DNA from: Psammoneis japonica
Lineage: Eukaryota
DNA length: 64,000 nucleotides
Reading direction: 5' to 3'
Assembly (NCBI GenBank): GCA_008632985.1
Contig: QPGO01000003.1
Span: 1-64,000 of the forward strand
In this document: in pieces, positions 2,800-41,441 of the stretch
How positions within the stretch are numbered: the first letter of the stretch is position 1
Layout of the letters: each line of letters opens with the position of its first letter
Translations under genes and position numbers: made by a program
The notes under the pieces: generated by a model
The model's database searches: none
The model's input: the letters and a program-made list of their open reading frames with translations, nothing else
Told to the model about the DNA's origin: nothing

Positions 2800-3094
2800 G
2801 CCACACTCCAGCTCTGGCTGGGACCTCACACTGCTGTGCTGAGACATGAGAGAGCTTTTGTGACATGTGCCACCTCATACACACACTTCTGTGCAAGATC
2901 TTTTTTTGCAAATTTGTCCCATGCTGCCCCCTGTTTTGTGGAGGAGTGAGTTTGTGCATTTCGCAAAATTGCCTCTTTTTCTGTTGGCGATTGTTGGCAT
3001 GTTCGTCATTCTCAATTGTTTTGCTGCAGAGCTCACATGAAGCATTCTGTGGACCCATTGTCACATGGAGCCCTGTCCAGTGCCAGAGCATGCC
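2800..3094. mobile_element. Eroded MITE copy (about 295 bp) with 4-bp target-site duplication ACCA
   Basis: Both ends align to the termini of 46752-47145, and it shares the core ttcgcaaaattgcctctttttctgttggcgat. ACCA lies at 2796-2799 and 3095-3098. Confidence 0.8.
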
Positions 3095-5798
3095 ACCACA
3101 GCATCAAAAGATCTTTTTTCTTGGAAGAAGGAGAAGAAAGGGAGGGGGGGGAGAAGATCCAGAGGATCTTCTTGCTGTTGCAAGGAGGAAACCACAAGCT
3201 GACAATGGCGGACCATCTTTGACAAATGCCCTTCTTCAGCATGTCCCGTTGTTGCATCGATGCAGCCCTGGTGTGGCAAGCACAGAAGCTGCTCCTTGCT
3301 GTTTGTTTCACAGCTTTGTTTGTTTCACAGCTTTGGTGGACAAAAAGCACCCCACCAGCGCAGTCCAGCCAGCACATGTGCATGTTTTGCCAAGTGGAGG
3401 AATTTGGCAAAGAGTCTCTTGTTTGGTTTTTCACCAGGCAAGAAGAATGACAATCAACAGCATTGTTGTTGTTGTTGTTGTTGTGACTGCAACCCCACAC
3501 AGTCCATTCGAAACCACGAGCGAGCGATCGAGCGAGCGAGCCGGTGGTCCCACCAAGTTCGTACGTCTACCGTCTACCGTTCACCATCCCTTGCACGTAC
3601 GCATCACGCACTTAGTTATTCGCCCATGGCGCTTGCTTGTTTGCCGTTCCATGTAGAAGACTCTGAAAGTGCTCTCTGCTGTTGCAATTGGTGTAAAGTC
3701 ACTTGATAGGTTTAAACTGTGGCTGGAGAGGATCATCTTCTGTAGAAGACTCTGACTAAAGAATAAAGAACACACCATGATGACAAACCAAGAAACAAAA
3801 CGCCAGACAACGACTCTAAACGGGGCTCCTCCCTTTTGCCGTTTAAAAATGTACGGAGAACACAAGCGAGCAGTCTCAGCTGTGGCCATGTCACCTCGAA
3901 ACGACAAGGAACATCCTCTCGTTGCCTCTGCGTCTGCCGATGGCACTGTCAAGATTTGGGATCTCAGTGATGGCAGCGGTGGTGGCAGCACTGTTGTCGG
4001 TTCTTTGGACAATAATGGCGACAATGTGCAAGCAGCCAATTCACAACTGGGAACCTCATTGCTTCCTTCACTGGTCCTGATGGGTCACTCGCGAGGTGTC
4101 AATGATGTGGCATGGTCGAAAACTGGAGATTATGTGGCTACAGCATCCGATGACAAGACGCTAAGGTTGTGGGATGTAAACACCGGAGAGGCTCTTGTTG
4201 AGTTTCGGGGGCATTTGAACTTTGTCTTTTGTACGAAATTCAATGCAGCCTTTAGCAACAATTTATTGGTAAGCGGAGGATTTGATGAGACTGTCAAACT
4301 ATGGGATGTTCGAACGGGTGATTGTGTATCGACTCTTCCGGCCCATTCCGATCCAGTCACGGGCGTTGACTTTAATCGCAAAATTGCCTCTTTTTCTGTT
4401 GGCGATTGTTGGCATGTTGTTCGTCATTCTCAATTGTTTTGCTGCAGAGCTCACATGAAGCATTCTGTGGACCCATTGTCACATGGAGCCCTGTCCAGTG
4501 CCAGAGCATGCCACCACAGCATCAAAAGATCTTTTTTCTTGGAAGAAGGAGAAGAAAGGGAGGGGGGGGGAGAAGATCCAGAGGATCTTCTTGCTGTTGC
4601 AAGGAGGAAACCACAAGCTGACAATGGCGGACCATCTTTGACAAATGCCCTTCTTCAGCATGTCCCGTTGTTGCATCGATGCAGCCCTGGTGTGGCAAGC
4701 ACAGAAGCTGCTCCTTGCTGTTTGTTTCACAGCTTTGTTTGTTTCACAGCTTTGGTGGACAAAAAGCACCCCACCAGCGCAGTCCAGCCAGCACATGTGC
4801 ATGTTTTGCCAAGTGGAGGAATTTGGCAAAGAGTCTCTTGTTTGGTTTTTCACCAGGCAAGAAGAATGACAATCAACAGCATTGTTGTTGTTGTTGTTGT
4901 TGTGACTGCAACCCCACACAGTCCATTCGAAACCACGAGCGAGCGATCGAGCGAGCGAGCCGGTGGTCCCACCAAGTTCGTACGTCTACCGTCTACCGTT
5001 CACCATCCCTTGCACGTACGCATCACGCACTTCGTTATTCGCCCATGGCGCTTGCTTGTTTGCCGTTCCATATAGAAGACTCTGAAAGTGCTCTCTACTG
5101 TTGCAATTGGTGTAAAGTCACTTGATAGGTTTAAACTGTGGCTGGAGAGGATCATCTTCTGTAGAAGACTCTGACTAAAGAATAAAGAACACACCATGAT
5201 GACAAACCAAGAAACAAAACGCCAGACAACGACTCTAAACGGGGCTCCTCCCTTTTGCCGTTTAAAAATGTACGGAGAACACAAGCGAGCAGTCTCAGCT
5301 GTGGCCATGTCACCTCGAAACGACAAGGAACATCCTCTCGTTGCCTCTGCGTCTGCCGATGGCACTGTCAAGATTTGGGATCTCAGTGATGGTAGCGGTG
5401 GTGGCAGCACTATTATCGGTTCTTTGGATAATAATAATAATAATATGCAAGCAGCCAATTCACAACTGGGAACCTCATTGCTTCCTTCACTGGTCCTGAT
5501 GGGTCACTCGCGAGGTATCAATGATGTGGCATGGTCGAAAACTGGAGATTATGTGGCTACAGCATCCGATGACAAGACGCTAAGGTTGTGGGATGTAAAT
5601 ACCGGAGAGGCTCTTGTTGAGTTTCGGGGGCATTTGAACTTTGTCTTTTGTACGAAATTCAATGCAGCCTTTAGCAACAATTTATTGGTAAGCGGAGGAT
5701 TTGATGAGACTGTCAAACTATGGGATGTTCGAACGGGTGATTGTGTATCGACTCTTCCGGCCCATTCCGATCCAGTCACGGGCGTTGACTTTAATCGC
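2961..5798 (+). repeat. Tandem duplication, two copies of about 1.42 kb (2961-4375 and 4376-5794), with TCGC microhomology
   Basis: Near-identical copies. TCGC occurs at 2961, 4376 and 5795. Confidence 0.95.
3777..4379 (+). pseudogene. WDR5: 3'-truncated duplicate of WDR5
   Basis: Same N-terminal WD40 repeats as the gene at 5196, ending at VDFNR at the duplication junction. Confidence 0.85.
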
Positions 5799-18518: not shown

Positions 18519-20031
18519 TCAAATTTTCTTGATCCTCCTCTTGTTGAACAGAAGAGCTTTCGCCGTCGTGATGATTAGATGCGCCGACAATGTCATCATT
18601 TCTGGTTTCCTTCTTTGAATCGTTTTCCCATTCTCTTTTTCTTTTTGAAACAGCCAAAAACAATAAGGCACTGTACATAACAGAGCAATAGCGCAAGCAA
18701 TGTTGACCGCCGTTTCCTTTCCACTGGCTGCAAGTGTAATGAGAGGATACTGAACCAAACTAATCACGGCCGAGAAAAACAAGCCAAGTCCCGCCAGAGT
18801 TCCATAATGTTCGTATCCAAATCGTTTTCCGACATTAGTAAAGAACATACCAAATACCATCATTCGACCAATACCATAGCATGACATTCCAAAGATTTGC
18901 ACAGTAGGCCGGGACCAACCAGAGTCACAAAGGAAATCGCCACTGTGACTGTTGCAATGGCTTGTGCCACTCCAAGGCCGGCATGGTCGGCAATCTTTCC
19001 CAAGAGTGGTGCATTGCAGCGGCACTGGCGTAGGTAATGGAAAATATACCCGTGTACACCCCGAGTCATCTCCTTTTTCCTCCAGTTGGTATCCAATGGT
19101 GGCGATGTAGTACTGAAGCGGAATGAGTAGAACGGAAAACCATGTTAGCAACAAGATGTACTCGAGGCTTTTCAACTGCTCCACTGAAGTAGGGCTTTTG
19201 AGGGCATTGTCATCTCGTTCTGTTTGAGAGTCCATCTCATCTAATGTGGGAGAAGAGGAAGAACCATCGATATCCATGCCCTTGCTACAAATGCTGTCAC
19301 TCGATCCATGTGCCACTCCGGGCTCTTTCGCTCTTTCATTATTTTCATTTTCCACGAATCCGTCCTCGCTATTGTTTTCTTCTGTCAAAATCAAATCATC
19401 AATGCCATCAAGATTTCTTTTTCTAGGCTCAAACTTGTCTCTTGGCAATACCACGGCTGAAACGAGCAATAGCAAAGCCAATACACCCGTGAATGCCCCA
19501 AATGTTTTGCTTCGATCCGTAGAGATTGCCGTCAAGACTAGAAACACAAGTCCGGATATTTGAAAGGCTCCCGACGTGGATGCCAAGAGACACCCTTGCA
19601 TTTGTTTCGGAAACAGTCCCGCCACGGGTTGAAGACAGAGCTGCACAGACGATCCCAATCCCACAAAAAACATGGACACGCCCAGGCGATTCCATTGTTT
19701 GCATTGGCCACTGCAATTCCACAACATCCCCCCGTCACACAGAGTAATCCCAAACACGTTGTATAGCGAGTCCCCAACCAATAATCGCGAGTCAAACCAA
19801 AAAAGAACCGTCCACCCTGTGTGCTCCACGCTCCCGCCAAAAACACGGCACCCAACGCGTCTTCGTCCAGATCGGAACCCTCCTCGTTGACCAAATTTCG
19901 TCGTAGCGAGGGCCATCCATACACGAGCCCGCGCCAACACAATCGATACAAAGCTATAGCCATATAGAAACCAGGAATGACACGTGGGAGAAGAATCCAC
20001 AACAACGACATTATTCGTCTCGGGACGGCAT
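18519..20031 (-). CDS. MFS transporter, SLC43/LAT3 (FMP42)-like (frameshifts)
   Basis: Multiple TM segments, an N-terminal GLVYGWPSLR motif and a large central loop. Confidence 0.75.
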
Positions 20032-20440
20032 TATGTGTTCTCTGGAGTGCGCCGTAGTTAATAGCCTATTCTCTCTACCGGTATTAAAGACACAATGAGT
20101 TTCTTTGATACTATTACACAGGTAGCGGTAATGTTACATGAATACCTGGCAATCATTTCTCTCAGAAGAGAATCTCAAGAGAGCATAATAGCGAAATCGA
20201 CAATCAGCAACAACGCAACAACAAACGACAACGCACCTCGCACCCGCGCAAAAACACAAAAATAAAAAATTCAAATGATTTGGAAAGCACAATAGCTCAA
20301 ACAAGATCAAACTACCGAAGAACTGCGCTCTCGCTTGTTATTTCTGCGCTGCCTTCTGTCCAATGACGCTTTTGTGACCTGTTGTTTGTTCAATGACCTC
20401 TTTGTGACTCCCACTCATCCTATGATGTCCTTCTACGTAC

Positions 20441-21620
20441 GTTTTCGGCAGTCACAAGGCTCATGTCAAGAAACAAGAGGCATTCAACACGACGAGACAT
20501 GAGACACCGCCTGCCACTTCCTGCCGTCACTGTTGTGCGACTGCAAAAAAAACATGATCTGCCGTCTCCAATTTTGCCGAAATGGGGAAGAACCACACCG
20601 ACCAAATTGTCACTCCAAAAAAGGGGCACTGCAATGAAGAGCCCAGCATGAGCAGGACGATGCCGAGAATCCGAGGATGGATGATGAGAAATGTGAGCAG
20701 GAAGCGACTTGCGAAGCAAGCCGCCCAGCCAACGGGTCATCAAGAATGACCATCGTCAACAGCAAACCAACAAGCCCTTTTGGGACAAGTGTTCGTGAAC
20801 ATGATGACAACGAAAAGCAGCAAGAAGAGCAAAAAGAGGTGTCGAAGAAGAAGAAGCTCACCAAGACCATCAGCAAATGACTTCGATGCAGCAGATTCAA
20901 AAGTCGTGGATCGCAAAAGGTCACAAAGGCTTGAAATGAACAGAGAGTCAGCCAAACAAAGAAGAAGGAAACAGCGAAGGTCAGTCGCTGACCTGCAAGA
21001 AAGCAATTTGAAGCTCGAGTCTGAAAGCCGCCTCCTTCGAAGACAAAAACAGGAGCTGGCTGCTCAGTTGGCAAAAGCACAAAAAGCAGAGCAACGAGGT
21101 GCTGCACCCAGTGTGGCTGTGAGTCGACCTGAAGCTGGGGCCCTTGTGGACTCGTTCCCCTCACTGCCCGACTCAACTCAAAAGTCTGTTGCTGCTGCTC
21201 TCCGGACCAGAGATCGCCGGTGGCTTTTGTCGGTGATGCCACATCCAGAGAGTTGGGAGGACTTCTTGCAGCTGGGAACACTGGCTTGCACCATCCAGAA
21301 AGACTGCCTTCAGTGTCATTGACGAGAAATGCACTGTTGAGAGCGCCCCTTCCCGCCTCACCTCGAGCTGCACGTCTTTTTTCTGGGACACGCCCTGACA
21401 CTGCATCTGCCGAAGCAGTCGCATCGCTGCAAGAAGCTGCAAAGATGCGTCTTCTTCTTGAAGACCAAGCGCGACGGCAGCGTCAACGAGAGCTCTCTTC
21501 TTCTTTGGGCAACCCTCTGGGATTGATGGACAGGCATCGAATGAAAACGAGAGAGCTTCTTCGTGGATGCCAGGAGCATTCTCCAACGAGAAAGAAGGTG
21601 AGTGCATTGAGCATGATGCA
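20441..21620. other. TpA-free domain B (CpG retained)
   Basis: No TA seen in about 1180 bp while CG stays frequent. Confidence 0.95.
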
Positions 21621-22400
21621 TTAATGGTTTTGTGATTGTCCTCTGGTGTGCTTCAAATGATGAAATGTGCATGGTGATTTCGTTTCTAACTTTGTCTCTC
21701 ACGTTCGTCATTTGTTTTTGCTCATGCGATCTTCTTTGTTGGAAGATCGTGTGATTGAGGCCATTCTTCAGGAAAGGAAGAAAACGGCTTCTCCTACTTG
21801 TTCGAAGAGGGGCATCATCCGTCGCCTACTTCTTCGAGACGTACGACGAGTGTCTAGAATGATAACCTTGAAGAAATCTGTCAGCCACAAGGTCAAGGAT
21901 CTCTTGATGAGGGAGAATCCCCAGAAGACATCCTCCTGAAGAAGCAGGAGGAAGCTCGTTTGATTGAGGCAATTCTTCGGGAACGGCAAACAATGCCCAC
22001 TTCTTCTCAGCCATCGCCTGCTTCCTTGAGACGTAATACGAGTAGTCGGAATGATGACCCTGAAGAAATCCGACAGAGAGAAGGTGGAGAATCTCTCGAG
22101 GAGGGGGAAGAATCCCCGGAAGAAATTCTCCGTAAAAAACAGCAGGAAGCTCGTTTGATTGAGACAATTCTTTGGGAAAGACAAATAAAGATGGCGATTA
22201 CTCGTTGTTCACAGCAGCCGTCACCTACGTCTTCTAGACCTACGACCAGTGTGCAGGATGATGGTCATGAAGGGATCCTTCGAAAACAGCAGCAGCAGGG
22301 ATCTCTCAAAGAGGGAGAAACTGAGGCAGATAGAGGCTACTGAGGCAACAGCGGGAAGCTCGAAAGATGAAAGCCATTCGTCTTGAATGAGCACCATCGG
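20677..22400 (+). CDS. bZIP transcription factor, possibly pseudogenised; probable intron at about 21598-21745; repeated C-terminal exon
   Basis: KRSQRLEMNRESAKQRRRKQ followed by heptad leucines. GTGAGT donor and CTAAC branch site. The ARLIEAIL.ER unit repeats about every 200 bp. Confidence 0.7.
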
Positions 22401-23197
22401 CGGCGACTGCTTGTTCGGAAGAGCATCAGCCGTCTCCTAACCTGGATGGCCGTGAAAACGACTGTGATGGACGCTCCCAACCACAAGTCTCACATTGGTC
22501 TCATCCTCTTTGTGACATGTAAATCGTACTTTTTTTCTCGCAAGCCCGTATACTGAGCCTTTTGATGTTGCGTAGATAGCTTCTTTCTCGAAAGAACAAA
22601 CGATACGATCACTGAAAGCAACAGTACTTCAAGTATTATCAACGAAGAGTCTAGTGGCTAAGGTATAGAGCTTCTTAGAGTGGGATCTTTACCCAAACTA
22701 TAGATATAGCTACGCACAGTAGTAGAGTGAGTAATAGCCATCTCTCTCACCAAAGACTTGCTAGCAAAAGCAGAGCGGAGCATTCACCCCTCTGCAGCAC
22801 GCCCAAGAATTTGCTGGATCGTAGCCAAGCGAGATAATAGTCCAAGTTGCCTCCATTGCATGGAACTGACCTTGATGAGAGTATATTACGTAATATAAGG
22901 AATGGAGGCGCCCCCTCTTTCAGAACGCACGACTTTGCTGATGCAATATGTATAGCTTGTGCATTGACGATAAGGCACACTCGTAAACGCATCAAAGATC
23001 AGAATAAATGAAAACCAGGAAGCAAATCTAAATCGCGCGATGGTGCTGTAGAGAGTAGCTTCTGTATAAGATCTTTCTACGTAGGGAATAGTAGAATTAG
23101 TCTTGCTACCAACCAGCTGGTTTGACAGGAGAATGTCAGATTCATGATTAGTGATTGATCCAATCAATCACGCAATACATGACTTGTGCCATTCCAA

Positions 23198-24000
23198 TCA
23201 CGCCCGTCGTCGCCGCTTTCGGCGCTGAGCCGTTGCACTCGTAGTTTCAATGATTTCAACTTGCTGCTTGTCTTCGTCCTCGTCATTATCACTGTCCAAC
23301 AAATCAATGACGCCACCGTTAGTAGATGACACGCCTCGTTGCTTCTTCTGTTTCTTGTTTTCATCAAGGACAACGACATTCTTTTTGGCTCGAGGTTTTT
23401 GGGAATTGTTGAAGAAACAGTGCGCGTGAAGCACAAAATTCCTGCATCGGCCAATGCCAAGCTGCGACAAGCTCCGTCCACCGTTTTTCAATTCACGTCC
23501 CAAATGAAAGAACCGAACCGGATGATGTTTCGTCATGTCACGCAACTCCTTGCGTCCAGCGAGTTGATTGAGCGTGCAAGACATGGAAACCTTGACCTAT
23601 ATTAAAAAGCACGAATGAGAAATATAGGCTCAGAAACTAGAATTCTGTGTGTATAGGAAATTCGAACGTATCAAAAGAACTCACCTCGGCTTTGAAAGCA
23701 TCAGACGTCCTTAGAACCGTCAATACGGCGGTAGAATCGTCCGTCTTGTTCATGGTTGTAACGAGAGTTGTTCTAGATTTGAGTTGCGTACGCGCTGATA
23801 CTGCGGTTGAAGCACGGAGCGAGCGAGGCTGTATATTGTTTCTTTGTTCTTTGCTTATTCGTCTTTTCCCTCGCTTCTATATGCGTCGAGATAAACACAA
23901 CAACCGTCTTGGAGAGTATCGATGAAACAAAGTCAACGCAGCGGAAGGAGACGGGAGGTAAAGGTCGCAACGCCGGCGCTGCGATGGCCAACACAAACAT
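23198..24000 (-). CDS. Protein with a ubiquitin-like domain and C-terminal SIM-like motifs; intron at about 23598-23684
   Basis: VRFFHLGRELKNGGRSLSQLGI...VLH resembles a UBL. VVVLDE, VIDLLDSD and VEIIE are each followed by acidic or Ser residues. Confidence 0.55.
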
Positions 24001-24776
24001 TGTGTAGTGTTATGTTGCCGCGCCCCGCATCATCGAAGCTCGACGAGCTCGCAGAGAAAGTCAGAACATTTCAATTTGAATAATTTTATTCATGTATGAA
24101 GCTATTTTATGTTAAGTCGTGGCTTTTGGTGGCGATTACAAAACCGTTGAGTCTCGCCATCCTTGCTGCCGTCAGCGGAGAAGGACCAAACGCTAGCCTA
24201 ACGAAATAAAAAGAATGAGTTTTGTTCCACAATACTAAACGATGCATCTTTTTCATTAGGCGGGATAATAATCCCTGTCTTAATCTTGTTGAGATTGGCA
24301 AGCAATAAGAATACCACGCCCGTATTCTTCGATGACTTTGCGCCGGAAAAACGGTGAACAGCACAACATGAGGAAAAGATTTCTTATTGAGCGTTTCTAC
24401 TAGAGAGGATGCCCTAACAAAAATGACAAATCAAAACTATTTCGAGGTGATTTGACAATATTAACAAGAACAGAGAGAAGAAAGACAGTGGTGTCGTCTC
24501 TCCAACAAGATGTTGATCTTTAGGCTCCCGATACACGTGGACTACCTAGCTAGAAGAAGTTACTCGGTTCTCATTCAGTGACAAGTCAAATCATCAAAAG
24601 TCCTTGTTTCCGTGCGTTACGGTATGGCACTCAGGTACAACACAAAGTGACCAAAATTTACTTTGAGCTCACGTAACAAGTAGAAGACCATGTTCACAGT
24701 AAATGTCGATGTTTTCTTTAAACACTATATACATGATTTATCCCTAATTTTTTCGAAGCACTGACGTGAACGAAGC

Positions 24777-25289
24777 CTACAAGTAGTAGTCCTTGCCGCT
24801 ACTGGCCACCGACGCAGCCAACCGACTCATTTCGATTTCCATAAGGTTATTCCGCTGAATGTTGACAAGCGAGTCAAGATGCAAGCCATTGGCGTCAAAA
24901 TAATACCCATATCCAGCCATATTCAACGCCAGACCCGCAACAAGAGCCACAGCCAAGGCACCAAACACGTACTGCGAGGCTCCAAAAAGGCCCCAAACCA
25001 CAGCACGCAGAGGGTCGAGAGAGTCATTCATGACTGTCCTTCCAAATTCTTGCACAATCCCATCGTCTTGGCGCTGCTTGGCCTCCAAAAGCAAGCGTTC
25101 GGTTGCACCAAGAGAATTAGTATCTTCGATATCGGCACTCATGTACAAGGAACCTTGTGAAGCAGCATCTTGACGTTGAAGCATGACGACGGGTGACACT
25201 GGAGAAACAACAACAAATGCATGCGCACGGGACGACATTATTACGAATACCGACACTACGGACACAAGGAACTTGGAAAGATACAACAT
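24777..25289 (-). CDS. Predicted plastid-targeted small membrane protein
   Basis: Signal peptide ending AHA-FVV and hydrophobic helices. Confidence 0.6.
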   Translation of the reverse strand: MLYLSKFLVSVVSVFVIMSSRAHAFVVVSPVSPVVMLQRQDAASQGSLYMSADIEDTNSLGATERLLLEAKQRQDDGIVQEFGRTVMNDSLDPLRAVVWGLFGASQYVFGALAVALVAGLALNMAGYGYYFDANGLHLDSLVNIQRNNLMEIEMSRLAASVASSGKDYYL

Positions 25290-25589
25290 GGTTGCTCGGA
25301 TTTCTTTGTGTAAGATGCGTTCAACGACGCTCAAGGCCTTTGTAGAGAATGATTCGAAAGAATACCAGGTGTAGCGAATGAGCGAAGTGTCGAAGGCATC
25401 ACAGCTGTCAATTTCGAAATTTTGAAGAAGGGCACATCTGCCGATCGATCCGGTGAAGTTTCACGCAGACATTGAGATGCAAGTTGAAGTTGGGAAGAAA
25501 TCCAATTCTTCTCAGACACACAGTCAGCGCAAGCGACCAACCCGGGGGCCCTCGCGCGCATGACCTCGCGATCGCGTTGCATCGTGTTT

Positions 25590-25762
25590 CTCTACTCTCT
25601 CTCTCTCTCTAGACTAGTACCGTAGCTCTAGAGTAGTAGCTAGCTAGAGAGTAGAGTAGAGTAGCTCTAGTAGATAGAGAGTACCGGTAGAGAGCCCCCA
25701 TGTTGAATGCACTCTCTCTAGAGAGTAGCCTTAGACTAGAGTAGAGAGAGTAGTGCATAGTA
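25590..25762. repeat. TAG/CTAG/AGAGT-rich low-complexity tract
   Basis: ctagactagtaccgtagctctagagtagtagctagctagagagtagagtagagtag... Confidence 0.85.
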
Positions 25763-26020
25763 CAATCGGCATCCTCGATCAACACATGAACAATGCCGAA
25801 GCCAGCAGATCCTCTCTCAAAACATATAATTTGCAGAGTAGCTGCTGGCCTGTGTCAACTGTTGGTGTGTGTGGAAGCTTCAGGCTGAAGCTGGGGACAG
25901 GCCAAAGAAGAGAATGGACAACCTAGAACATTTGGCGAATCACTTGAATAATATGGCTTGTACCTTGTACAGAAGGAAGATTTGGCCACCAACGGGGCGT
26001 CTATGAGACATGAGACTGTT

Positions 26021-29000
26021 TTACTTTCCTATAGAGCAAGTACAAATGGTGTCTTTCCATTGATCGCTGCACTTGACTGGCCCTCTGCTCGTACAAGTTG
26101 CAACGTCACCTGCGTTGCCTGCTGCCGAGATACAATATCCGCCTTGATTCCTGCAAAAGGCATCGCAGCTGTCACCGTTCAGTTGGACAAAAACGGTACA
26201 CTCCATTTTGCTCTTATCTTCGGAACAAAGGTGTATGCCCCCCTCGTATCCAGTGTTACACAATGATGACGGTTTGAATGACTTCACTGGGCACGAATTG
26301 CAAGTCCTAGGGCAAGCCGCGTAGCCCGTCAGAGTGACCCCCTCAGCATTCTTGCCCGTTACCCGGCAAGAGGATGGCTTAGTCTCCAGGTATTTGCAGT
26401 CCTTTCGAACACGTGTAAAGCTCCATTTTTCGTGACGTAATATTTACCGTGCCAATCTTGGTCGTCGTGACAATCAAGGATTTCAGACGGTCCAATCGCT
26501 GGAGCCGTTGTTGCTATTGAGCTTCGGAGGTTTCCTGGAGACACAGTTGGCGGATCTCCAAGTGAACAGGTGCATATGTTGTCTATCCTTTCAAGATCAC
26601 AGGTTGATGGTCCTCTGCTCGTACAAGTCGCAACATCACCAGCATTTTCTTGTGCGGAAATGCAATATCCGCCTTGTTTCGCGCAAAAGCTATCGCATGT
26701 CTCACCATTCAACATGGCGTAAACGGTGCATTCCATTTTGCTTTCATCTTCGGCGCAAAGGTGTATGCCATTCTTGTGTCCAGCGTTGCACAAATTGACG
26801 GTTTGAACGACGTCACTGGGCACGAATTGCATGCTCTGGGACAAGCCGCGTAGCCCGTCTGAGTGACCCCTTCCGCATTCGGGCCCGAAATCAAGCAAGA
26901 GGATGGATTGGACACCAGGTATTCGCAATTCTTTCGCATGACGTATAGAAGTCCGTTCTTTGTGAAGTAGTAATTTCCCACCCAATCTTTGTTGTTGCTA
27001 CATTCAAGCTCCTTCAGAGCTGTGAGTGCATTTGTTGGAGCAACCGTTTTTGGCTTTTTCGGAGCAGGCGACGGCGAATCAGTTGGTAGCGACGTAGGGA
27101 GGTTCGTTGGTGGTGTAGCGGCAGGCGGTAGCAGCTTAAGCGCCTCCGTTGTTGCAGGAGATGGTGAGTTTGTCGGCCTAAGCGATGGTGCCTTTGTCGG
27201 CGCAAGCGTTGGCGGCGTGCTAGGTTGGTTTGTCGGCACTGGCGTTGGATTAGTTGTCGGTTCAGAGGTAGGTTTCGCTGTGGGAGGATTTGTCGGCACT
27301 TGCGTTGGTTTATTCGTTGGTTTCAAAGTAGGCCCTTCTGTTGGTCTATCGGTTGGGGCGTGCGTAGGTGTCCACGTCGGGAGTTGAGTTGGTGACGTTG
27401 TAGCGGTGTCAACGTAGGAGTCAACGTCGGCGCAGGCGTCAGTGACTTAGATGGTGTCAATGTCGGGTGGTCTGTAGGTGCCCTAGTGAATGGCGCTGAC
27501 GCTTCGGTCGGCATCAGAGAAGGCTGAAATGTTGGAGAGTCAGCAACATCTGATGGTACCTCCGTCTCTTCCGAGAGCCTCGAGAGGCTGCATTTTCCAC
27601 ACGAGGCGGGACAGCCATCGAAGGCTGATACAGAGTTGTTCTCCGCGTCAAGCCCAACAAGTTTGCACCTTGCATCAGGGCTCTTAGCAACAAACTTGCA
27701 CTTTTTCGTTGATCCATTCTTCGCGAAGACCCAATTACTATCGTCACTGCATTCTAATCCATCTTTCTCTGTGTTGTGAGACGTATTTTCACCGGTGAAT
27801 GTAGTAGGTCGTGCTGTTGGCGCTCGAGACGATGGAGCGTATGTCGGGTACGTATTGAGGGGCAACGTTGCTGCCCGTAATGTTGGTGCTGAGGTTTCCA
27901 ACACATCACTTATTGGGCAAGAGCCACACGTGAGTGGACACGCCTCGTATCCAGAAGCATCATTGCCAAACGCATTTTTTCCCATTAGCTTGCATCGTGA
28001 AACAGATTTGGATTTCAAATATCTGCAGGGCTTTCGAACCCCGGATTTGGTAGTGAAGATCCAGAGCTTATCATCAGCACACCCACCCTCCAATGGACGA
28101 TACGGAGTAATCGTTTCCGAGATTTGATTCGTCTCGGAAACAGAAGATAGTGTGGTTGACGAAACCGTTGGCATCAAAGTCACGGGTGCAGCCGGAGCTT
28201 CTGCTTCTACCAGCGAAGAGGGAGACGAACCTTTCGTTTTTATACCAACCCTGACTTTTTCTATGGGTCCGAAATTTCCGCCAGCTTTCTCCAGTTGCCC
28301 GTCAAAGTAAAGCGAGTAGCCCCCATCTCCATACTCGCAACATATTCCATCGTTCTCGCTATCTCGAATGGTAAAGGTGTATTTATCAAGAGGCAAGCAG
28401 AGTCGCGTGATGTAGGTTTTCTCACTACGAAGCCCATTAGCAGATTCAATGACGTCGTTTTTGGAATTCGTTAATTCCCAAGACGTTTCCTCTCCCCATT
28501 CATCCGTCGTCAGATTGAGCATGAAGACCTTTTCATCACAAAGGAACTCGGTCGGTGAAGGTGTTGGAGGTTGGGTATAAAGAGGGTCCTGCTTACAACC
28601 ACCAAGCGCTCCGTCCGAAAGGGGATCTGGAGACTCATCACCGGCTGTGCATCCATCGCGTTTCAAAAGATCGTAGGCTTCCTTTGCTTGAACCATGCCA
28701 AATCCGGACTCGGTGTCACAACCTGATAGTCCTATGTCCTTGGCAGTTCGTATCAGTACGTTTCTGATTTGATGGTTCGTGCATTCTTCAAAATGTAACC
28801 ACAGCAGAGCAGCAATGCCGGCTACATAGGGCGTTGCCATGGAAGTGCCTTTTTAAAAGAGAAATTACGGAGAAAACAATGAGGTCCAGCTTTGAATACT
28901 GTTGAAATCAACTGGTTTATCTGCACTTACCACTCCAGCTATCGTAGCCGTAATGTGTCCCATCGACTTTCGGTACGGTTGATACAATGTCGATTCCAGG

Positions 29001-30071
29001 ACCGGCGATCTCTACTTGGTCGTTGTATTGAGAAAAAGGTGCAATTGCTTCATCCTGTCCAGTTGCAGCTACCGACATAACGGAAGGGAAAGATGCTTGA
29101 AAGGCGTATGATGTGTCGCCTGCATTCCCAGAAGCAGCAATCAATAAAACACCTTCGTCGTATGCGGTTTGGAATGCATTGCGAGCTACGTCACTTGTTT
29201 CGTCTCCTCCAATACTCATACTTATCACCTTGGAACCGGCCGCGATACAACCTTTGAGTGCCTTCAAGACAAGGAATTCAGATCCATCACCCCGCGCGTC
29301 CAAAACTTTTGCAATATGGAAACTGAAGCCTGACATGTTTCGTAGAACACCCGCAACACCAATGTCGTTGTTTCCTAGCGCCCCAATTGTACCAAGACAA
29401 TGTGTGCCGTGGCCATAATCATCCACCCTCCAATCACCAATCCCGGTTTTTGTTCCGGTCACGCCTTCAGTGGGAAGATCCGGATGTCCCAGAGCCATCC
29501 CACTGTCAATAATACAAATCGTCATATTTCCAGTTAGAGAAGCGCTCCTCGGAATGCCCCATATTTGATCCGCTTGCACCATTTTCATGCCATATCCGAC
29601 ATGTTCAAGCACGCGACGGCGTTGCTCTTCCGGTGCGAGTGGTTTCTTGGGACGCTTCTGCGGTTGCAGTGCATGTACTTTGTGATTGAGCTCGACAAAA
29701 TCAATATTAGCATCGTCCAACAAAGTTCTAATTGCTTCTCGGTCGTTCGTCTCGATCGACATAATGGGATGGTGGGGTAGTCTCTTGGATTTGACTCTCG
29801 ACACCTTTCTCGCCAAAGACTTCCCTCTTCCATTTTTGTACTTTACGAACAATGATATTGCCTCGGTCAGTTCCTTGTCATCATCCGCGGCGATTCGAAG
29901 GATCTCATCGCTTCCCGCGGACTCTTTTAGCCACTTCTCTTTGCTCCTTTTTCTAAGCATCGACACGGGAGGATCAGTCTCGCTTGAAGGCAATTGGCAA
30001 TCTGCGACATGCAACATCACGAGTGATAGCACCGCTCCGATCCATGGTGTGCGGAGAAAGAAGAATGCCAT
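26021..30071 (-). CDS. Secreted subtilisin (S8) protease with PT-rich linkers, ShKT-like and Cys-rich C-terminal modules; intron at about 28849-28930
   Basis: Catalytic motifs IIDSG, HGTHCLG and SG|TSMATP (split by the intron). Signal peptide, ACPxTC and DSCDxFCxxQGGxC modules. Confidence 0.9.
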
Positions 30072-30449
30072 GGGCGATTTAAAAAAATAGTTCCGTCAAA
30101 TGAAGAGTAGAGATGAAGAACAGCGGATCTCTGTGTATCGCATCAAGAAAAAGGAGGAGGGCAAATATGAAAAAATTGTGACTATCGAAATCTCAGAAGT
30201 GAGAAAATGTCCCATTTAGAATGACTTGAGCAGTGCCGGCCGAAAGAGCATCAGGCAGGTAGGCAGGGGCAATAATTTGAAACTGTGACTCCTTTTTTCT
30301 ATTATTTGTATCCGTGAGAGTCATCAACCACAGACACTTTGGACATCGAGAGGGTTACTGTAAATCCATTAACTGGTCGCTAACGACGGACCAAATTGCT
30401 CACATCATTGTGTGGCATGCTCTCACAGTTGTTTGATCAAATCTAGAAA

Positions 30450-31700
30450 AGCTTTGCCCATGCAGGCATTGAAATGGGATCTCATTGACTCATGAATCCA
30501 TCTCGCATCCAACGACATCAACTCCTTTTTGTCGCCGTGTTCTCGGCGTCAGTGTTGTGGGCCAAAGGCACAAATCCCTGTGTCGACGAGTGCGGGACAA
30601 AAGAGCGCTTCTGTGGAGAGACATCGTCAGAGTGCACCTTTGCTGTCAACTTGGGTGGTGACAGCTGCAATGACTTTTGTGGGCGACATGGGGGGCGATG
30701 CATCACCACCAAAGCTGCTGGAAGTTCCAGTTGCAACACAAAGGGCGCGAACTCTTGTTCTCATGGCTGCAAAAACAACGCGTGTGTGTGCTCACTTCAA
30801 GACGTCACCAAGGGAGGCAACCAGCCTCCGAAAGAAGAAGAGGCCAAAGTGACTGCTCTAACACCCTGTGTCAAACAGTGTGGTGAAGAAAGTTCACTGT
30901 GCGAAGAAACGTCGCAGCAACGTTCCTTTTGTGTTGTTTTGAAAAAAAGGAGTTGTGGTGACTTTTGCGAACAGCATGGCGGCACTTGCTTGGAAGCGCG
31001 GGTGGCATCGGAAGCTTCCTGCACAGCACGTGAAACCAACTCTGAGATGACTTTTGCGTTTGCACAAGAAACGAAGCGCATGCACCATCTCCCACCCCTG
31101 GTCCTGCACCACTTCCTGCGCCCTCTCCCACGCCGCAGTCACCTCCAGATCCGACTGGGCCACCTGCTCAGCTTCCGACATTTCAGCCAACAGAAAAATC
31201 AATGGATTGTGTCGACGTTCCACAAGGTTGGCATGACCCTGATGGCGAGATCTGCAATTGTGCTTGGCACAGTTTGGATGACAACTGCAAAGAATGAGGA
31301 GATTTCTTTGAAAATTTTGGAGCCACGGCGAGTGCAGCCTGCTGTGGATGCGGTGGAGGGAACCTTCTGTCAGTCGATGGGATTGCACAAACGCCATCCC
31401 CGACGCCACGGCCTTCGCCACTGCCGACAAGCAGCCCTGCCCTCTCTCCCACTGCAGCTGCACCAACAGCCAAGCCGACCGACTGCCCTGCCATGGAATC
31501 AACAGCCAAGCCGACGAAAGGACCAACACGGGTTCCAACGAAGGCGCCCTCATCCAATCCGACTGAATTCCCAACCCTGGAGCCATCAGCCAAGCCGACG
31601 CGAGGTCCAACACGAGTTCCGACATTGCCTCCCACGAGTTCAACTGTTTCACCGACACCAGTGCCAACGCTTGCTTTGACAACGCGTCCAACCTCGACCC
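30450..31700. other. TpA-free domain C covering the 5' half of the M64 gene (CpG retained)
   Basis: One TA (30859) seen in about 1250 bp. Confidence 0.95.
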
Positions 31701-33365
31701 CTACGAAGGGTCCGACTTTGACGCCATCAAATCCTCCTACTGCTCAAACACATGATCCGACGGTGCGTCCGACTTTAGCCCCAACTCTTTTGCCAACCGC
31801 AACGCAAACAACCAATCCTACAGTGAATCCCACACAGTCCCCTTTAGCATCAGCAACATCATCTCCGACCCAGAGATTGACGCCAGTTCCGAGTAGGAGA
31901 CCAACAGCCTTCTCATCAAACAATGACCCTCCCCGCGCTTATACGGCGTATCCCACTCTTGCGCCAACAAATGCACCCACGATCCTGATACCAATGGACG
32001 CCGGTGACGACGATATAAAAGGACAGGGTTCTTCAGAACCAGGATCCTTGAGTGTTGGTAGGGCGTGCTCGAAAAGTAATCAATGCAAGTCATCGACTTG
32101 TCGAAGTGGCGTTTGTATGGCGTCGCCGGCTTGCTATCCAATCAAACACACGTTTGGGAATCCATTCCACAAGAATAGATCAACATTGTGTTTGTTCCAT
32201 CCGCATTCGCTTCATTTGGTCATGATGCTTGGCATGATCACGTCAATAAGACATATGGATTCATGCAAAACTACAACATGTTTGCAGAAGATATCGACGA
32301 GCTCAACGTTTTTAGGGTGGATCCTTTGAATCTCGATGAGTCATTTTGTGCATTGGGATGTCAGGGATTCGACCGACTCTTGTGCTGCGACGTAAAACGT
32401 ACCCATGCGTTGGCCAGCAAGTGCTTCCCTGTCGGACCTAATCTTCAAACTGCTGTCATTCATAGCTCAAGGCAATATGGTGGTGCAGGATACACTAACG
32501 CAAACATTGCTACGGCGACAATGCATCCTGCCGCCCTCTCGTATTAGTACATGAGCTTGGTCACTCGCTCTTTGAGTTGACCGATGAGTACTCGTACGGA
32601 GAAGGAAGTGCCTTTGAGGCAAATTGTGATTCTAGCAGATCTTGCGAGAAATGGTCAGACCTCATGGAGGAAAATTACAGACCGAAAGGTTACGAAAGAG
32701 TGAAATGCATTCCAGGATGTGAGGATGGGTACTACTTTGTTGGAGGCAAGACATTCATGAATGACTTGAGCGCTCCCGTTGGAGCGGTCAATGAACGGTT
32801 TAGTTGCTGTACATACTTGCGTTGACGAAAAAGTTCCCTTCCTACTGTGATGTTTTTGATCCGTCCCCAAACTATCTCTTGAACTATTGCAAGAAGGATT
32901 ACCAAAACTATGGTGCCTCAAGCTACGAAAGTGAAGAGGTCCTTGCCATACCGGGGTACACAAACAATGACAAGGCCGACGCTAAATACATGAGAGTGGT
33001 AGATCCAGCAATGGTGACAATTACATCCACAACAAAGCGCTCGGGGTCACGGTATTCCGAACAAAAACATCTCAATTAGAAACTGGAATCTTTCCTACGT
33101 CTCAGGTCAAAGGCGACTTTGTTAATCCAAGAGCCGCAATGAAACAAGGAGTAGATTCCTTGTTGAAAGTCTTGGTCTTTTATACAAGAGGAAAAGACAC
33201 GCTGTTTTTTCAAGAAAAATAACCATTGAAATACCCCCGCCTCCTCCCAACAGCACAACATTACAAGGAGTCCCTCACAGTGTTTCCGATGAACCCAATG
33301 TTTTCGAGTTGGTCTTGGACACCAAAGGACGGGCTGTAAAGAAGATTCGTGTCAAGGCAATCTGA
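30492..33365 (+). CDS. Secreted Cys-rich / PT-repeat / peptidase M64-like metalloprotease; 5' half eroded, possibly a pseudogene
   Basis: YGGAG and HELGHS...LTDEY motifs. Paralog of 41442-45005. In-frame TGA near 31295. Confidence 0.75.
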
Positions 33366-35480: not shown

Positions 35481-36646
35481 GCACACCGACCTGCCATGCA
35501 TTGCATGTGCGTGTTCTTCACATCATGACAACACACAAAAAAGGGGTGAGCCGCAGCAGAGGCCCTCTGATGCTGTGCAGGTTGTTTGTCTCCAAACAAG
35601 AAGCAAAAGTGCCCAAACACCTCCTCCTCCTCCTTCTCTTCTTTTGTTGCCAGAGACTCTGCTTTTTGCGTTGCTCTGTGGTGGTGTGGCCAACTCTCCC
35701 GCTTTGTTTTGCAAAAGAGCATGCACAGCCACACTTGTTTTGCAACAAGATTTTTTTTTGCTGGACACATGTTGTTTTTGGCAGGTGACTTGGTTTTTTT
35801 TCAGACACTGCCCCAAACTTTGAGTGCTGCTGGCGCTGCCACACACTGGTGCTTGGCTCTCTCTCTCTGCACAGCAGGTTCTCTTGCCTTCTTCTTGCAC
35901 ACCACCACACACACACACAGGGCAGCCCAAAACATGATCAAATTGACAATGCAGCAAGAAGCAACAACGTCAACAAGAAAATGTTCAGCACACATCACAC
36001 GCAGCAGCAGGTGGCAGCAAAGCGGCGCTTTTCTGAGATGGTGTGCGTGAATTTCACAATTGAGCATGTGCACATGGGGTGATGTTTGCACAACAAATGT
36101 TGTGTCCAAGCAGTGCACAAATGTGAAATGACAACATTGGCACTGTCATGTGTGTGATGGGATTTTGGTTTGAGGTGGGGAGCAATGCACCAGACTTGGT
36201 CAATCATGGGGGGGGGGGCTGTGTGTCAAAAAGAGCTGGTGTGTTGCAAGTTTGTGAGCCAAATTGTCAAAATGCTGTGTCACGAACAAGCCCCAAACAC
36301 ACACTGTGTTTGTGTGCCATCATGTGAGATGTCCCATGTCTGACTGGATGTTTGTGTCCCCAATCATGTTGGCCAGCTGCACAACTGGCATGCAAGAAGA
36401 CTGCGCTCAAAACTGAGTTGCAGCATGATGATGCAAAAATGTGCACACAGCTGAAATCCCATCAACACCCATTTTGTTGGAAGGAGCCACACCCCACACT
36501 GGACTTGGCAAAGAAAGTGATGGAAGATCAAGAAAGTTAAAGGAGACACACACTGGAGAGCGCCAGACATGATGGGATGAAAGGGTGGCACAGCACTTGC
36601 ACACAAGCCAAGAGGTGGCACAGTGCTTGCACAATCCACAATGCAG

Positions 36647-36661
36647 GGCAGCAGCAGCAGC

Positions 36662-36694
<33 letters not shown>
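36647..36694 (+). repeat. (CAG)n microsatellite with one CGG interruption
   Basis: Directly visible. Confidence 0.95.
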
Positions 36695-36695
<1 letters not shown>

Positions 36696-37386
36696 CCAAC
36701 CACAATGCCAAACACACAGAGCTTGTGAGGCAACAAACTGAGAACCGCAACAAGCAGTGGTCTTGGCAGCAACTTGCTTCTTTTGGAGAACAGGCCAACA
36801 TGGCCAATCAGAAACTTGTTGAGGAACAGAGTGCAGAGTTCTTGCTCATCAGCTGGCTTATGTGAAACTTGTGGCTCTAGATTTCCCCTAAGTCATTTTA
36901 TTTTCAGAAGATGTCCATAACGGCTTAAGGGCTTATCAGTGTGGACCCTCATGACTGGTTGAGTGACTGCAACATTGATTATTTAGTAACGCTTCAATTT
37001 TTATAATATTTCGTCGGACTCTCGACATCAGCTGTCCAAAGAAATTCTGTCTTCCAGTGAGGGCCTACCATAGTACACATAAGACGTGCGCACAGAAAAC
37101 AACATACGGGCTGATTGACAGACTGCTTCAGTAAGATTTCTACATATTATTCTTTGGACAGCCGCTGTCCAGAGTCTGCCCCCCCCCAGCGAGCATGGGT
37201 TTTTGTGCGGTCCGTGAGTCCGTGATTTTTTTGGGAATTGTCATGCAAAAAAATAGATACTGTAATGTCTAATGTCATCTTTTCGCGGTTAGTTCAAGGC
37301 TCAGTGCAAGGAATAAACCAATAAGCAAGGACACTCCCTCTGTGATACAACAACTCACTGCATGACACAATACTCAGAGTGCAGCC

Positions 37387-40300
37387 ATGACGTTCTTCTT
37401 CTTTCCGACCATCGCGACATTGCTATGGTTCGTGATGTTGCATGCCGCAGATTGCCAATTGCCTTCGAACGATACAGATCCTCTCATGTCGATGCTGAGA
37501 AAAAAGAGCAGAGAGAAGTGGACAAAAGAGTCTGCAGGAAGCGCTGAGATCCTTCGAATCGCCGTTGACGATGACAAGGAACTGGTTGAGGCAATATCAC
37601 TATTCGTAACGTACAAAAATGGAAGAGGAAAGTCTTTGGCGAGAAAGGTGTCGAGTGTCGAATCCAAGAGAATACCCCAACATCCTATCATGACGATTGA
37701 GACGAGAGACCAAGAAGCAATCCGAGCGTTGTTGGACGACCCTGATATTGATTTTGTCGAGGTCAACACAAAGTACATGCACTGCAACTGCAGAAGCGTC
37801 CCAAGAAACCACTCACTCCAGCAGAGCGACATCGTCGCGTTAATGAACATGTTGGGTACGGCATAGGAATGATTCAAGTGGACCAAATATGGGACATTCC
37901 AAGGGACGCTTCGCAAACTGGAAATATGACGATTTGTATTATTGACAGTGGCATGGCTCTGGGACATCCGGATCTTCCCACTGAAGGCGTGACGGGGACA
38001 AACACAGGGATTGGGGATTGGAGGGTCGATGATTATGGCCACGGCACACACTGTCTTGGAACAATTGGGGCGCTAGGAAACAATGGCATTGGCGTTACGG
38101 GTATTCTACGAAACACATCAGGCTTCAATTTCCACATTGCCAAAGTTTTGGACGCGCGGGGTGATGGATCTGAATTCCTTGTCTTGAAGGCACTCGCAGG
38201 CTGTATCGCTGCCGGCTCCAAAGTCATAAGTATGAGTATTGGAGGAGACGAAACAAGCGATATAAGTCGCACAGCATTCCAAATGGCATACGATGAAGGC
38301 GTTTTACTTGTTGCCGCTTCAGGGAATGCAGGTGACACTTCACACGCCTATCCAGCATCGTTTCCATCAGTCATGTCGGTAGCTGCAACTGGACAGGATG
38401 AAGCAATTGCACCTTTTTCTCAATACAACGACCAAGTAGAGATCGCCGGTCCTGGAATCGACATTGTATCAACCGTACCGAAAGTCGATGGGACACGTTA
38501 TGGCTACGGTAGCTGGAGTGGTAAGTGCAGATAAACCAGTCGTTTTCAACAGAATGCATGACTGGATCTCATTGACTTCTCCGTGATTTCTCTTTTTAAA
38601 AAGGCACTTCAATGGCAACGCCCTATGTAGCCGGCATTGCTGCTCTGCTGTGGTCGCATTTTGAAGAATGCACGAACCATCAAATCAGAAACGTGCTGAT
38701 ACGAACTGCCAAGGACATAGGACCATCAGGCTGTGATACCGATTCGGGATTCGGGATGATCCAAGCAAAGGAAGCCTACGATCTTTTGAAACGCGATGGA
38801 TGCACAGCCGGTGATGAGTCTCCAGACCCCCTTTCGGATGGAGCGCTTGGTGGTTGTAAGCAGGACCCTCTTTACACCCAACCTCCAACACCTTCGCTGA
38901 CTGAGTTCCTTTGTGATAAAAGGTCTTCATGCTCAATCTGACGACGGACAAATGGGGAGAGGAAACTTCTTGGGATCTAACGAATTCCAAAAACGACGTC
39001 ATTGAATCTGCTAATGGGCTTCGTAGTGAGAAAACCTACATCACGCAACTCTGCTTGCCTCTCGATGTATACACCTTTACCATTCGAGATCGTGAGAACG
39101 ATGGAATATGTTGCGAGTATGGAGATGGGGGCTACTCGCTTTATTTTGACGGGCAACTGGAGAAAGTTGGCGGAATTTTCGGGCCCATAGAAAAAGTCAG
39201 GGTTGGTATAAAAACAAAAGGTTCGTCACCCCCTTCGCTGGTAGAATCAGAAGCTCCGTCTGCACCGTTGACTTTGATGCCAACGGATTCGTCAACCGCA
39301 CTATCTTCTGTTTCCGACACGAATCAAATCTCAGAAACACGTAAGCCGTATCTTCCACCGGAGGGTGGTTGCGCAGACGATAAGTTCTGGCTATTCACTA
39401 CCAAGACCGGCTTGAAAAAGCCCTGCAGATATTTGAAATCCAAGTCTTTGTTGCGATGCAAGCTAGTAGGGAAAAATGCCTTTGGCAATGATGCATCTGG
39501 CTACGAGGCGTGTCCACTCACATGTGGCTCTTGCCCAAGTGAGGAGATAGAAACCTCGGCTCCAACTTTGACAGCAACATCACCCCGCACCACTTACCCG
39601 ACCCACGCTCCATCATCACGAGCGCCAATGCCACGACCCACAGAATCCGATTCCAACTCGTCCATCACAACTAGAACCGGGGCTCATAACGCAGAAAACG
39701 TTGGGTCAACATGCATCGACGATAGAAAGTGGGTCTTCGTCAGGAAGGGTTCAACAAAAAAGTGTAAGTTTGTTTCTAAGAATCCTGACGCTCGGTGCAA
39801 GCTTGTTGGGCAAGATGAAGAGAACAACTCGGTATCGGCCTATGACGGTTGCCCCTTCTCTTGTGGAAATTGCAGCCTCCCGAGTTCCTCAGAACAAACT
39901 ACGGCACCATCAGATTTAACTGCATCTCTAACAATTCAGCCTACTCCAGGACCTGGTACTACCGGTATAAGACCAACGAACTTCCCAACATCGACACCAA
40001 CTAAGTCAAAAACGCTTGCACCAACTTCGTTCAATTCGTCGAAGCTCTGCAACAATGGATATGAGGACGGCATACTCCTATGTGAAGAAGATAGGAGCAA
40101 AATGGAATGTACAGCTTTTGCCAAGTTAAACGGTGACAGCTGCGATGACTTCTGTATGAAGCAAGGCGGAATTTGCATATCGGCAAAATCCGATGCAGAT
40201 GATTCGTGTGTCAGCAGAGGACCAACGAAATGCAGCGACAAATTAAAAGACAACATATGTTCATGCTCGCTTCCTTCAATACCAGCAAAGTCGCCAGCGA

Positions 40301-41025
40301 ATTCACCGGCAGAGTTGTCTCCAGCAGCAACAGAAGATTCTCTCTGCAAAGATGACAAGGACTGGTACTCCGACAAATACAAGATGGACTGCAAATCCTT
40401 GGAGACGGAGTCATTCTATTGCTGGATAATGGGCGAAAATGCGGAAAGTTCAGGTCAGACAGGCTACGAGGCTTGTCGGGTCGCTTGCAACACGTGTCCA
40501 GCAACGTCGCTCAATCCTTCGACGCTCTGTAATAATGGATATGAGGACGGCATACTGCTGTGTGAAGAAGATAAAAGCAAAATGGAATGCACAGTCTTTG
40601 CCAAATTAAACGGTGACAGCTGCGATGACTTCTGTATGAAGCAAGGCGGAATTTGCATCTCGGCAAAATCCGATGTAGATGATTCGTGTGTGAGCAGAGA
40701 GCCGACAAAGTGCAGCGCTGAATTGAAAGACAACATATGTACCTGCTTTGTTGGAAATTTTGAAGAGGCTCAGTTACCAGCAACTGCCAGTTCGTCAACC
40801 TGTACAAGCTATAAAGGCAGAGACTTCCTTCACTGTGAGCAGACCAAAACCGAATGTTCAGCCTACGTTAGGTTGGATGGCGACAGCTGCGACGATTATT
40901 GCAAGAGTCAGGGCGGTAGTTGTCTTAACGCATCGTCTAACGGCGGCAAGGTAACATGCGAAACGAAACGTCGAAAGTCCTGCAGTAAAGGCGTTCGAGA
41001 TATGATATGCACGTGCACCTTCTGA
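37387..41025 (+). CDS. Second secreted subtilisin (S8) protease, paralog of 26021-30071; intron at about 38522-38603
   Basis: IIDSG, HGTHCLG and SG|TSMATP, with the same intron position and similar Cys-rich modules. Confidence 0.9.
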
Positions 41026-41441
41026 GTTTATCAAACCAACCAATGCTGCGTGCGCAGAGAAGAGTGCTACTTTTGTTGTGTTGAATGGTAGCAGCTCTGT
41101 CCGCAGACGGCTCCCGATCGGTCTGAAGCCACAGAATCGAAACATCAACAAGTCGAGTGACAAATACGGTGCAGATCGGAGACCACTTATAGAGTGAATG
41201 GAGAGCCATACTCAATACCGGTAGAGGGCAATCGTCTGAAGGGAGTTACGATTGGCACTACCGTATTGTGCGCAGTTCAGAATGAACCCTAACCCAAACG
41301 GACTACCCTGTCTTTGTCAATAGTCTCAATTTAAACCCTCTCTACTACAAAAACTGAAGACTAGAAGATCAGCCTAAGATGCACAGAAATCATGAATTAC
41401 TACCCTTCCTTTTGCACGATCACAATTTGTGTAACAATGTG

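Follow-up and report, generated by a model that had tools for sequence, protein, structure and literature searches.

In the 64,000-nucleotide stretch of Psammoneis japonica DNA analyzed here (the window; positions 1 to 64,000 of contig QPGO01000003.1), a tract of 1184 bp at positions 20439..21622 contains not one TA dinucleotide. We consider it probable, at roughly 65%, that this tract is the footprint of TpA-to-TpG/CpA (A:T to G:C) hypermutation on a single-copy segment that belongs to no repeat. What is new here is the class of target, which is single-copy, free of transposable elements (TEs), largely CpG-retaining and the size of a transcription unit. A complete tract on DNA of this kind would mean that targeting needs neither repetition nor long-term CpG methylation. 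TpA-specific A:T-to-G:C hypermutation has a single published description in the full-text literature, a 2026 preprint on a chlorarachniophyte whose supplements may also bear on novelty, and the same full texts yielded nothing of this type for diatoms (Mettrop et al., bioRxiv 10.64898/2026.01.13.699255).

The TA-free tract and the direction of change

The absence of TA over about 1180 bp had been claimed in an initial annotation of this DNA, and the counts bear it out: the unstranded tract holds 0 TA in 1184 bp, where 50.8 are expected from the rate of the window outside its TA-poor blocks (2086 TA in 48,574 bp), giving a Poisson probability P0 of 8.6e-23, or about 1e-22. When the tract was shuffled 2000 times by mononucleotide, TA numbered 65.65 on average and 46 at the least, and the largest TA-free gap in the background DNA of the window measures 275 bp. 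The edges are sharp, with ordinary TA-rich DNA adjoining, and the nearest TAs are those at 20421, 20434 and 20438 before the tract and those at 21622, 21687 and 21795 after it. The remark in the same annotation that TA reappears in a CTAAC motif is likewise correct, as the TA at 21687, the second one past the tract, sits in TTTCTAACTTTG. TA is missing from the 173-codon open reading frame (ORF) within the tract and equally from the 362 bp 5' of it (20439..20800, plus strand), presumed to be the promoter-proximal region and 5' UTR, and from the 300 bp 3' of its TGA (21323..21622, plus strand), presumed to be 3' UTR or exon sequence in another frame.

The composition of the tract was compared with that of background DNA. 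Its CA+TG o/e is 1.37, a value as high as which is found in 0.5% of 427 background windows of the same length, and its GC content is 0.517, compared with 0.469 in the background and 0.512 predicted from conversion of 50.8 TA. The total of CA, TG and TA amounts to 202, while the controls have 223 ± 13. With 109 CA and 93 TG, the two dinucleotides do not differ significantly in number (binomial p = 0.29), which indicates that both strands contributed. Relative to background, the excess is +22 for CA and +7 for TG; added together, these make up about 29, short of the roughly 51 TA that are missing, which counts against the conversion reading. A 4-mer conversion fit was powerless to separate T>C from A>G (control standard deviation about 0.3). 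Judged from its composition, the tract itself would have undergone conversion of TA to CA or TG.

Across the whole window, the o/e of TA is 0.495, that of CA 1.31 and that of TG 1.30. TA-free gaps of more than 800 bp occur seven times and fall into two classes. The CpG-poor class comprises blocks at 709-2682, 35318 to about 36538-36900, 47156-48200 and 50318-51510, with a CG o/e of 0.11-0.30 and CA and TG o/e of 1.7-2.1; short repeat families are common to the blocks at 709-2682 and 47156-48200. The CpG-retaining class comprises the tract at 20439-21622, which has 56 CpG (o/e 0.71), and a second tract at 30445-31702 (CG o/e 0.75).

Changes of the A>G/T>C type relative to a sister copy were seen in the same window at another locus than the tract. 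Between the WDR5 copies at 3440-4375 and 4859-5798, 15 of the 936 aligned sites are different, 14 of them by A>G or T>C, most of these at TA and with the G or C in the copy nearer the repeat block. At position 4019-4020 of this pair, both bases of a TA have changed to give CG, and this double hit implies that the process can create CpG. Two segments of the WDR5 area, 2961-3481 and 4376-4900, are identical and both TA-free, and are therefore uninformative on direction.

Under the hypermutation reading, the process that stripped TA from the repeat DNA of this genome would also have acted on a segment the size of one small transcription unit. The adenine of TpA, on whichever DNA strand it lies, would be deaminated and then read as G. 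The mutator may be drawn by the state of a single gene, be it repressive chromatin, small RNA or transcription, and would respond neither to copy number nor to long-standing CpG methylation. Most likely, the gene would have been silent, dispensable or already dead when it was hit, or else hit in one burst.

A bZIP-like reading frame and its surroundings

The simplest gene model for the locus is a compact ORF of 173 codons plus TGA on the plus strand (20801..21322), which contains no Tyr codon. Matches in Pfam, the PDB and the protein atlas point to a bZIP-like basic region and leucine zipper at approximately 20909..21070 (plus strand). In the bZIP motif, an invariant N and R stand at canonical spacing in the basic region, and leucines recur in heptads after it; in the translation, an N-x7-R spacing and four Leu at 7-residue spacing can be read by eye. 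The best Pfam family is bZIP_1 (PF00170), with an E value of 0.094 and 13.3 bits, below the gathering cutoff of 27.6, in an alignment that spans profile positions 4-59 of 64. Of six PDB matches, the five top-scoring ones are bZIPs and the last is a synthetic helix; the E values are 0.038 for CREB1 (5zko), 0.065 for TGA3, 0.16 for CREB and 0.2 for TGA7, and residues 12-57 align without gaps to the CREB1 bZIP (5zko). The nearest clusters in the atlas are bZIP families, some with diatom members; the top score of 0.90 with 176 shared features is a lead only, and all of the 10 best matches come from one family or clan. This segment of the ORF is thus very probably of bZIP ancestry.

Homology searches were also made with the ORF. 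A phmmer search against 1.84 billion representative proteins returned 0 matches at E <= 0.001, and scans of metagenome and viral contigs confirmed 0 of 528 and 0 of 12 pattern matches, respectively. Pfam searches with five ORFs of the locus at E <= 0.01 gave nothing but a spurious RICTOR_phospho match, those with the 149 ORFs of at least 110 aa in the window gave no match for any ORF inside the tract, and Rfam had no match over 19500-23500. The length of the ORF is not significant either, as 23% of Markov simulations of the tract produce an open run of 190 codons (P = 0.23); since TGA is the sole possible stop in TA-free DNA, long ORFs have no evidential value there. Codon usage was modeled on the 15 Pfam-confirmed segments of the window; the model favors the plus strand and does not single out the bZIP frame. 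The locus had initially been described as a host bZIP gene. That description is no more than probable: the PDB and atlas matches favor it, and the sub-threshold Pfam score, the 0 homologs and the null results for ORF length and codon usage speak against it.

Where 4.6 Tyr codons are expected in the ORF, there are 0. The 15 Pfam-confirmed gene segments in the window hold 0.05-0.15 TA per codon and 1.2-4.6% Tyr. Examination of the codon positions of the ORF for a selection filter on synonymous outcomes gave no signal, at low power. Because every TA is gone, including those of all Tyr codons, the changes do not appear to have been filtered by selection. Annotators should be aware that Tyr-free "orphan" proteins may be hypermutated relics.

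A single first exon running to about 21597, as originally proposed, is at odds with the reading frames: the bZIP-like frame ends at the TGA at 21320-21322, and the sequence from there to 21597 is open only in another frame, which spans 21133-21597. The putative intron proposed with this exon (21598..21745, plus strand) has a GTGAGT donor, CTAAC at 21685-21689, a pyrimidine tract and AG at 21744-21745; joining 21597 to 21746 continues neither the bZIP frame nor the frame at 21133-21597. Three tandem units of about 200 bp follow (21741..22343, plus strand), which are 68-76% identical and include an open frame at 21858-22343, and the region that contains them (21623-22500) has 18 TA, a lowish o/e of 0.31. 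The first of these units (21741-21952) carries a frame-shifting indel and an in-frame TAG at 21855-21857, where the others have CGG and CAG, and is intron sequence or has decayed.

Close to the left edge of the tract, two copies of the 17-nt motif CAATGAC..TTTTGTGA (family D3) are located on the plus strand at 20361-20377 and 20391-20407, and a third, weaker copy (13/17) at 21619-21635 falls on the right edge of the tract. The motif may be a promoter element shared by two adjacent genes, a boundary feature, or a product of chance. The neighbor in divergent orientation on the minus strand (18522-20030) is probably an MFS transporter, with an atlas score of 0.99 to MFS_1 clusters from several phyla; it had no Pfam match at E <= 1e-4. 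A metagenome contig of 2986 bp (L001) carries a 43% identical relative of this MFS-like neighbor and ends before the side on which an ortholog of the bZIP-like ORF would be expected.

CpG retention, copy number and alternative origins

The tract had been said to have kept its CpGs. Most of them are indeed retained, far above the level of the repeat blocks, but retention is incomplete: the o/e of 0.71 is equal to or below that of all 427 control windows (mean 0.98, sd 0.11, minimum 0.71). If the approximately 50 C and G gained by conversion are discounted, arithmetic gives an o/e of about 0.84. At codon positions 2-3 and 3-1 of the ORF, CpG was observed 8 times compared with 23 expected, and Arg-type CG at positions 1-2 was observed 10 times compared with 7.6 expected. 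Deamination of 5-methylcytosine (5mC) also yields TG and CA, and it accompanies TA loss in the repeat blocks; in the tract, however, CpG is mostly kept, and CpG decay therefore cannot account for the TA loss or for most of the CA+TG gain. The earlier proposal that TpA loss is separable from 5mCpG decay holds in so far as TA can be erased entirely in DNA with little CpG decay, but, given the CpG o/e of 0.71, it does not extend to mechanistic separability. A kinetic reading fits equally well, in which a single silent state leads to both and TA erasure is much faster than 5mC decay. The mild CpG loss would be explained if TA erasure outpaces CpG decay in the same silent state by at least an order of magnitude (at least 12-26 times), or if the tract was little methylated or not at all.

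The copy number of the tract was assessed from assembled reads and by sequence comparison. The contig of public run X1 that crosses the tract and its unique flanks has a uniform depth of 58.8. Among the contigs of runs X1-X3 at >= 80% identity, one covers the tract and otherwise only short pieces were found; as the comparison covers 16 of 310 pieces and 40 of 680 differences, a rare variant could escape it, and no second allele of the tract was found among these 16 of 310 pieces. The protein, metagenome and viral searches yielded no ancestor or ortholog of it either. Within the window, blastn found no paralog of the tract, and a transition-blind purine/pyrimidine comparison gave a longest match of 30, compared with 23-31 under the null. 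A sequence search of the scan index found no look-alike.

Two triggers had been considered in the initial annotation, the internal repeats of the following exon and paralogs elsewhere, and neither is borne out. The tandem units keep TA and differ from each other chiefly by ordinary substitutions, about 3 of the approximately 50 inter-unit differences being TA versus TG/CA, and no paralog was found in the window, in the run contigs (beyond short pieces among those listed) or in the scan index. Together with the single-copy depth, these observations give no support to repetition as the trigger. That no TE lies nearby agrees with the lack of any repeat, paralog or Pfam TE domain at the locus, although Pfam is silent on the repeat blocks as well. 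In Phaeodactylum, H3K27me3 is reported on 1421 of 3493 TEs and on 700 poorly expressed genes (PMC4504042); by analogy, a silent state common to TEs and genes is a plausible trigger in the present organism.

Instead of a host gene, the tract could be what is left of foreign or mobile DNA, for example of a bZIP gene carried by a virus or transposon, with the rest of the element gone or unrecognizable; the target would then be of the type that the mutator normally strikes. This origin would suit the orphan status of the ORF among the 1.84 billion representatives, the insertion-like sharpness of the tract edges and the presence of a weak 17-nt direct motif close to both of them, and the process described in Bigelowiella natans does target integrated viral DNA, where many TpA-depleted genes are unannotated (10.64898/2026.01.13.699255). 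We nevertheless consider it unlikely, if still worth serious attention, as the ORF has no relative in the viral contig collection and no TE or viral Pfam domain, and the tract has no likeness to the repeat blocks of the window, even in the transition-blind alphabet. Its depth is that of single-copy DNA, in the atlas it lies closest to clusters of eukaryotic bZIP families, some of them including diatom members, and the motif match of 13/17 may be due to chance. It is highly improbable that the tract is the retrocopy of an mRNA with A-to-I hyper-editing at UA sites, in which the change would have occurred in RNA and not in DNA. In size, the tract roughly matches a single small transcript without introns, and RNA-editing enzymes prefer U before the edited A (Mettrop et al., Discussion, 10.64898/2026.01.13.699255), but editing of the sense strand predicts an excess of TG only, whereas CA is here at least as abundant as TG (109 versus 93) and in the larger excess (+22 versus +7). 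Moreover, neither a poly(A) tract nor a target-site duplication was found at the 3' edge, and the intron-bearing genomic copy of WDR5 shows both T>C and A>G.

An artefact of sequencing or assembly, for example the systematic misreading of a modified base in TpA, is scarcely credible. A 5225-nt contig of run X1 spans 20097-25315 and reproduces the tract with 0 base differences from the window; run X1 possibly represents the sample behind the assembly, and this reproduction is thus not independent proof. X1 differs from the window, however, at 7 sites in the adjacent 1.7 kb, which shows that its contig is no mere copy of the window. The sharp edges beside ordinary TA-rich DNA also speak against misreading, and an identical signature has been verified as heritable mutation in B. 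natans (10.64898/2026.01.13.699255). Selection against TA, whether by UA-directed RNA decay or by avoidance of stop codons or TATA elements, would be in keeping with the general under-representation of TA in the window and with its lower frequency in coding DNA. Yet the 15 Pfam-confirmed segments combine their TA content with normal Tyr levels, and TA is equally absent from the 362 and 300 bp outside the ORF; at a probability of about 1e-22, both selection and chance are effectively refuted by the counts.

Comparison with known systems and other loci in the window

The second CpG-retaining tract (30445-31702) has 1 TA in 1258 bp. It starts about 50 bp 5' of the ATG of a plus-strand gene and extends 1.26 kb into this gene, which encodes a signal peptide, two Cys-rich repeats and a PT-rich linker; the end of the linker is paralogous to an M64-like peptidase gene at 41830-45225 (E = 4e-44). 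The block was considered as a paralog control and rejected, since the part upstream of the PT-rich end is unrelated (best E 2.0). In run X1, the contig at 29878-31233 has a depth of 98 compared with 56-59 in its neighbors, and this segment possibly exists in two copies. The two tracts have a common layout, the one at 20439-21622 starting 362 bp 5' of its ATG and measuring 1.18 kb, the other starting about 50 bp 5' and measuring 1.26 kb. This 5'-anchored layout of about 1.2 kb, with n = 2 and the anchoring taken from ORF positions alone, suggests that targeting occurs at the level of the gene, by way of chromatin, small RNA or transcription. It amounts to a concrete rule, gene 5' end and about 1.2 kb, that is testable genome-wide.

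In AID-dependent somatic hypermutation of immunoglobulin genes, the footprint lies near the 5' end of the gene and fades after 1-2 kb, and the enzyme deaminates cytosine in somatic cells of vertebrates. Both CpG-retaining tracts resemble this pattern, as they begin at or just upstream of a gene start and run for about 1.2 kb; they differ in that the adenine/thymine of TpA is affected and the changes are germline-fixed, and there are two such tracts. A broader conclusion would be that the TpA mutator can be aimed at single non-repeated genes, writing a 5'-anchored tract of about 1.2 kb according to transcriptional or chromatin state and not according to repeats, foreignness or methylation. We regard this generalization as speculative and rather a long shot. 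If true, the process would be a formal counterpart of somatic hypermutation in immunoglobulin genes that acts on adenine and is inherited through the germline, and it would retire (or diversify) host genes besides its role in genome defence.

The repeat-induced point mutation (RIP) known from Neurospora and other ascomycetes is a local, dinucleotide-specific storm of transitions that puts sequences out of action and can spill over into single-copy DNA next to them. It changes C to T, mostly at CpA, thereby creating TpA, and needs duplicated sequence. In the present tract the direction is reversed, TA being absent and not in excess, and no duplicate was found in the window, among the listed run-contig pieces (beyond short ones) or in the scan index. 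RIP also serves as a comparison in the Discussion of Mettrop et al. (10.64898/2026.01.13.699255).

The closest known system is that of the chlorarachniophyte B. natans, in whose mutation-accumulation lines the new mutations of two viral inserts were A>G/T>C in 210 of 211 and 20 of 20 cases (bioRxiv 10.64898/2026.01.13.699255). All of these changes were located at TpA, with a rate about 1000-fold that of the baseline (Mettrop et al., bioRxiv 10.64898/2026.01.13.699255). The two cases share a strong TpA depletion with a gain of CpA+TpG, an involvement of both strands, a sharply local extent and a direction against the usual GC-to-AT bias. They differ in that mutations were measured in B. natans, whereas here they are inferred from composition and in another organism. 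The targets there are integrated giant-virus and virophage DNA, with inserts of tens of kb (10.64898/2026.01.13.699255), in contrast to a 1.2-kb single-copy, gene-like tract without viral or TE mark. Nor does the foreign or repeated nature of those targets have a recognizable counterpart at our locus, where no TE or viral domain and no paralog was found and the depth is that of single-copy DNA. Some TpA-depleted coding sequences of B. natans have host-like domains, and many of the genes are unannotated (10.64898/2026.01.13.699255). The cutoff used by these authors is a Rho CpA+TpG of >= 1.52 in at least three consecutive 1-kb windows (10.64898/2026.01.13.699255); the tract, with its CA+TG o/e of 1.37 and its length of 1.18 kb, lies below both the value and the three-window cluster.

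Three further loci of the window are of note. The HA-domain gene at 53781-55580 (minus strand) is intact, with 600 codons, a Pfam E value of 7e-140 and a CpG o/e of 0.99. It has kept its Tyr (17 TA at codon positions 1-2, 2.8% Tyr), and TA at positions 2-3 and 3-1 occurs 8 and 6 times compared with approximately 21 and 27 expected; as the gene is made up of 6-7 tandem 201-bp units, its codons are not independent. This pattern could mean that the gene is live and that selection has filtered the erasure of its TpA. The repeated element at 25517-26017 has a normal TA o/e of 1.07 and is untouched by TA erasure; in run X1 it shows a depth of 137 compared with about 59, and numerous indels, joints and loose ends. 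An inverted segmental duplication (26000-33350 and 37420-43340) consists of pieces that are 76-94% identical and carries subtilase and M64-like peptidase paralogs, and the CpG-poor TA-free block that starts at 35318 lies between its arms.
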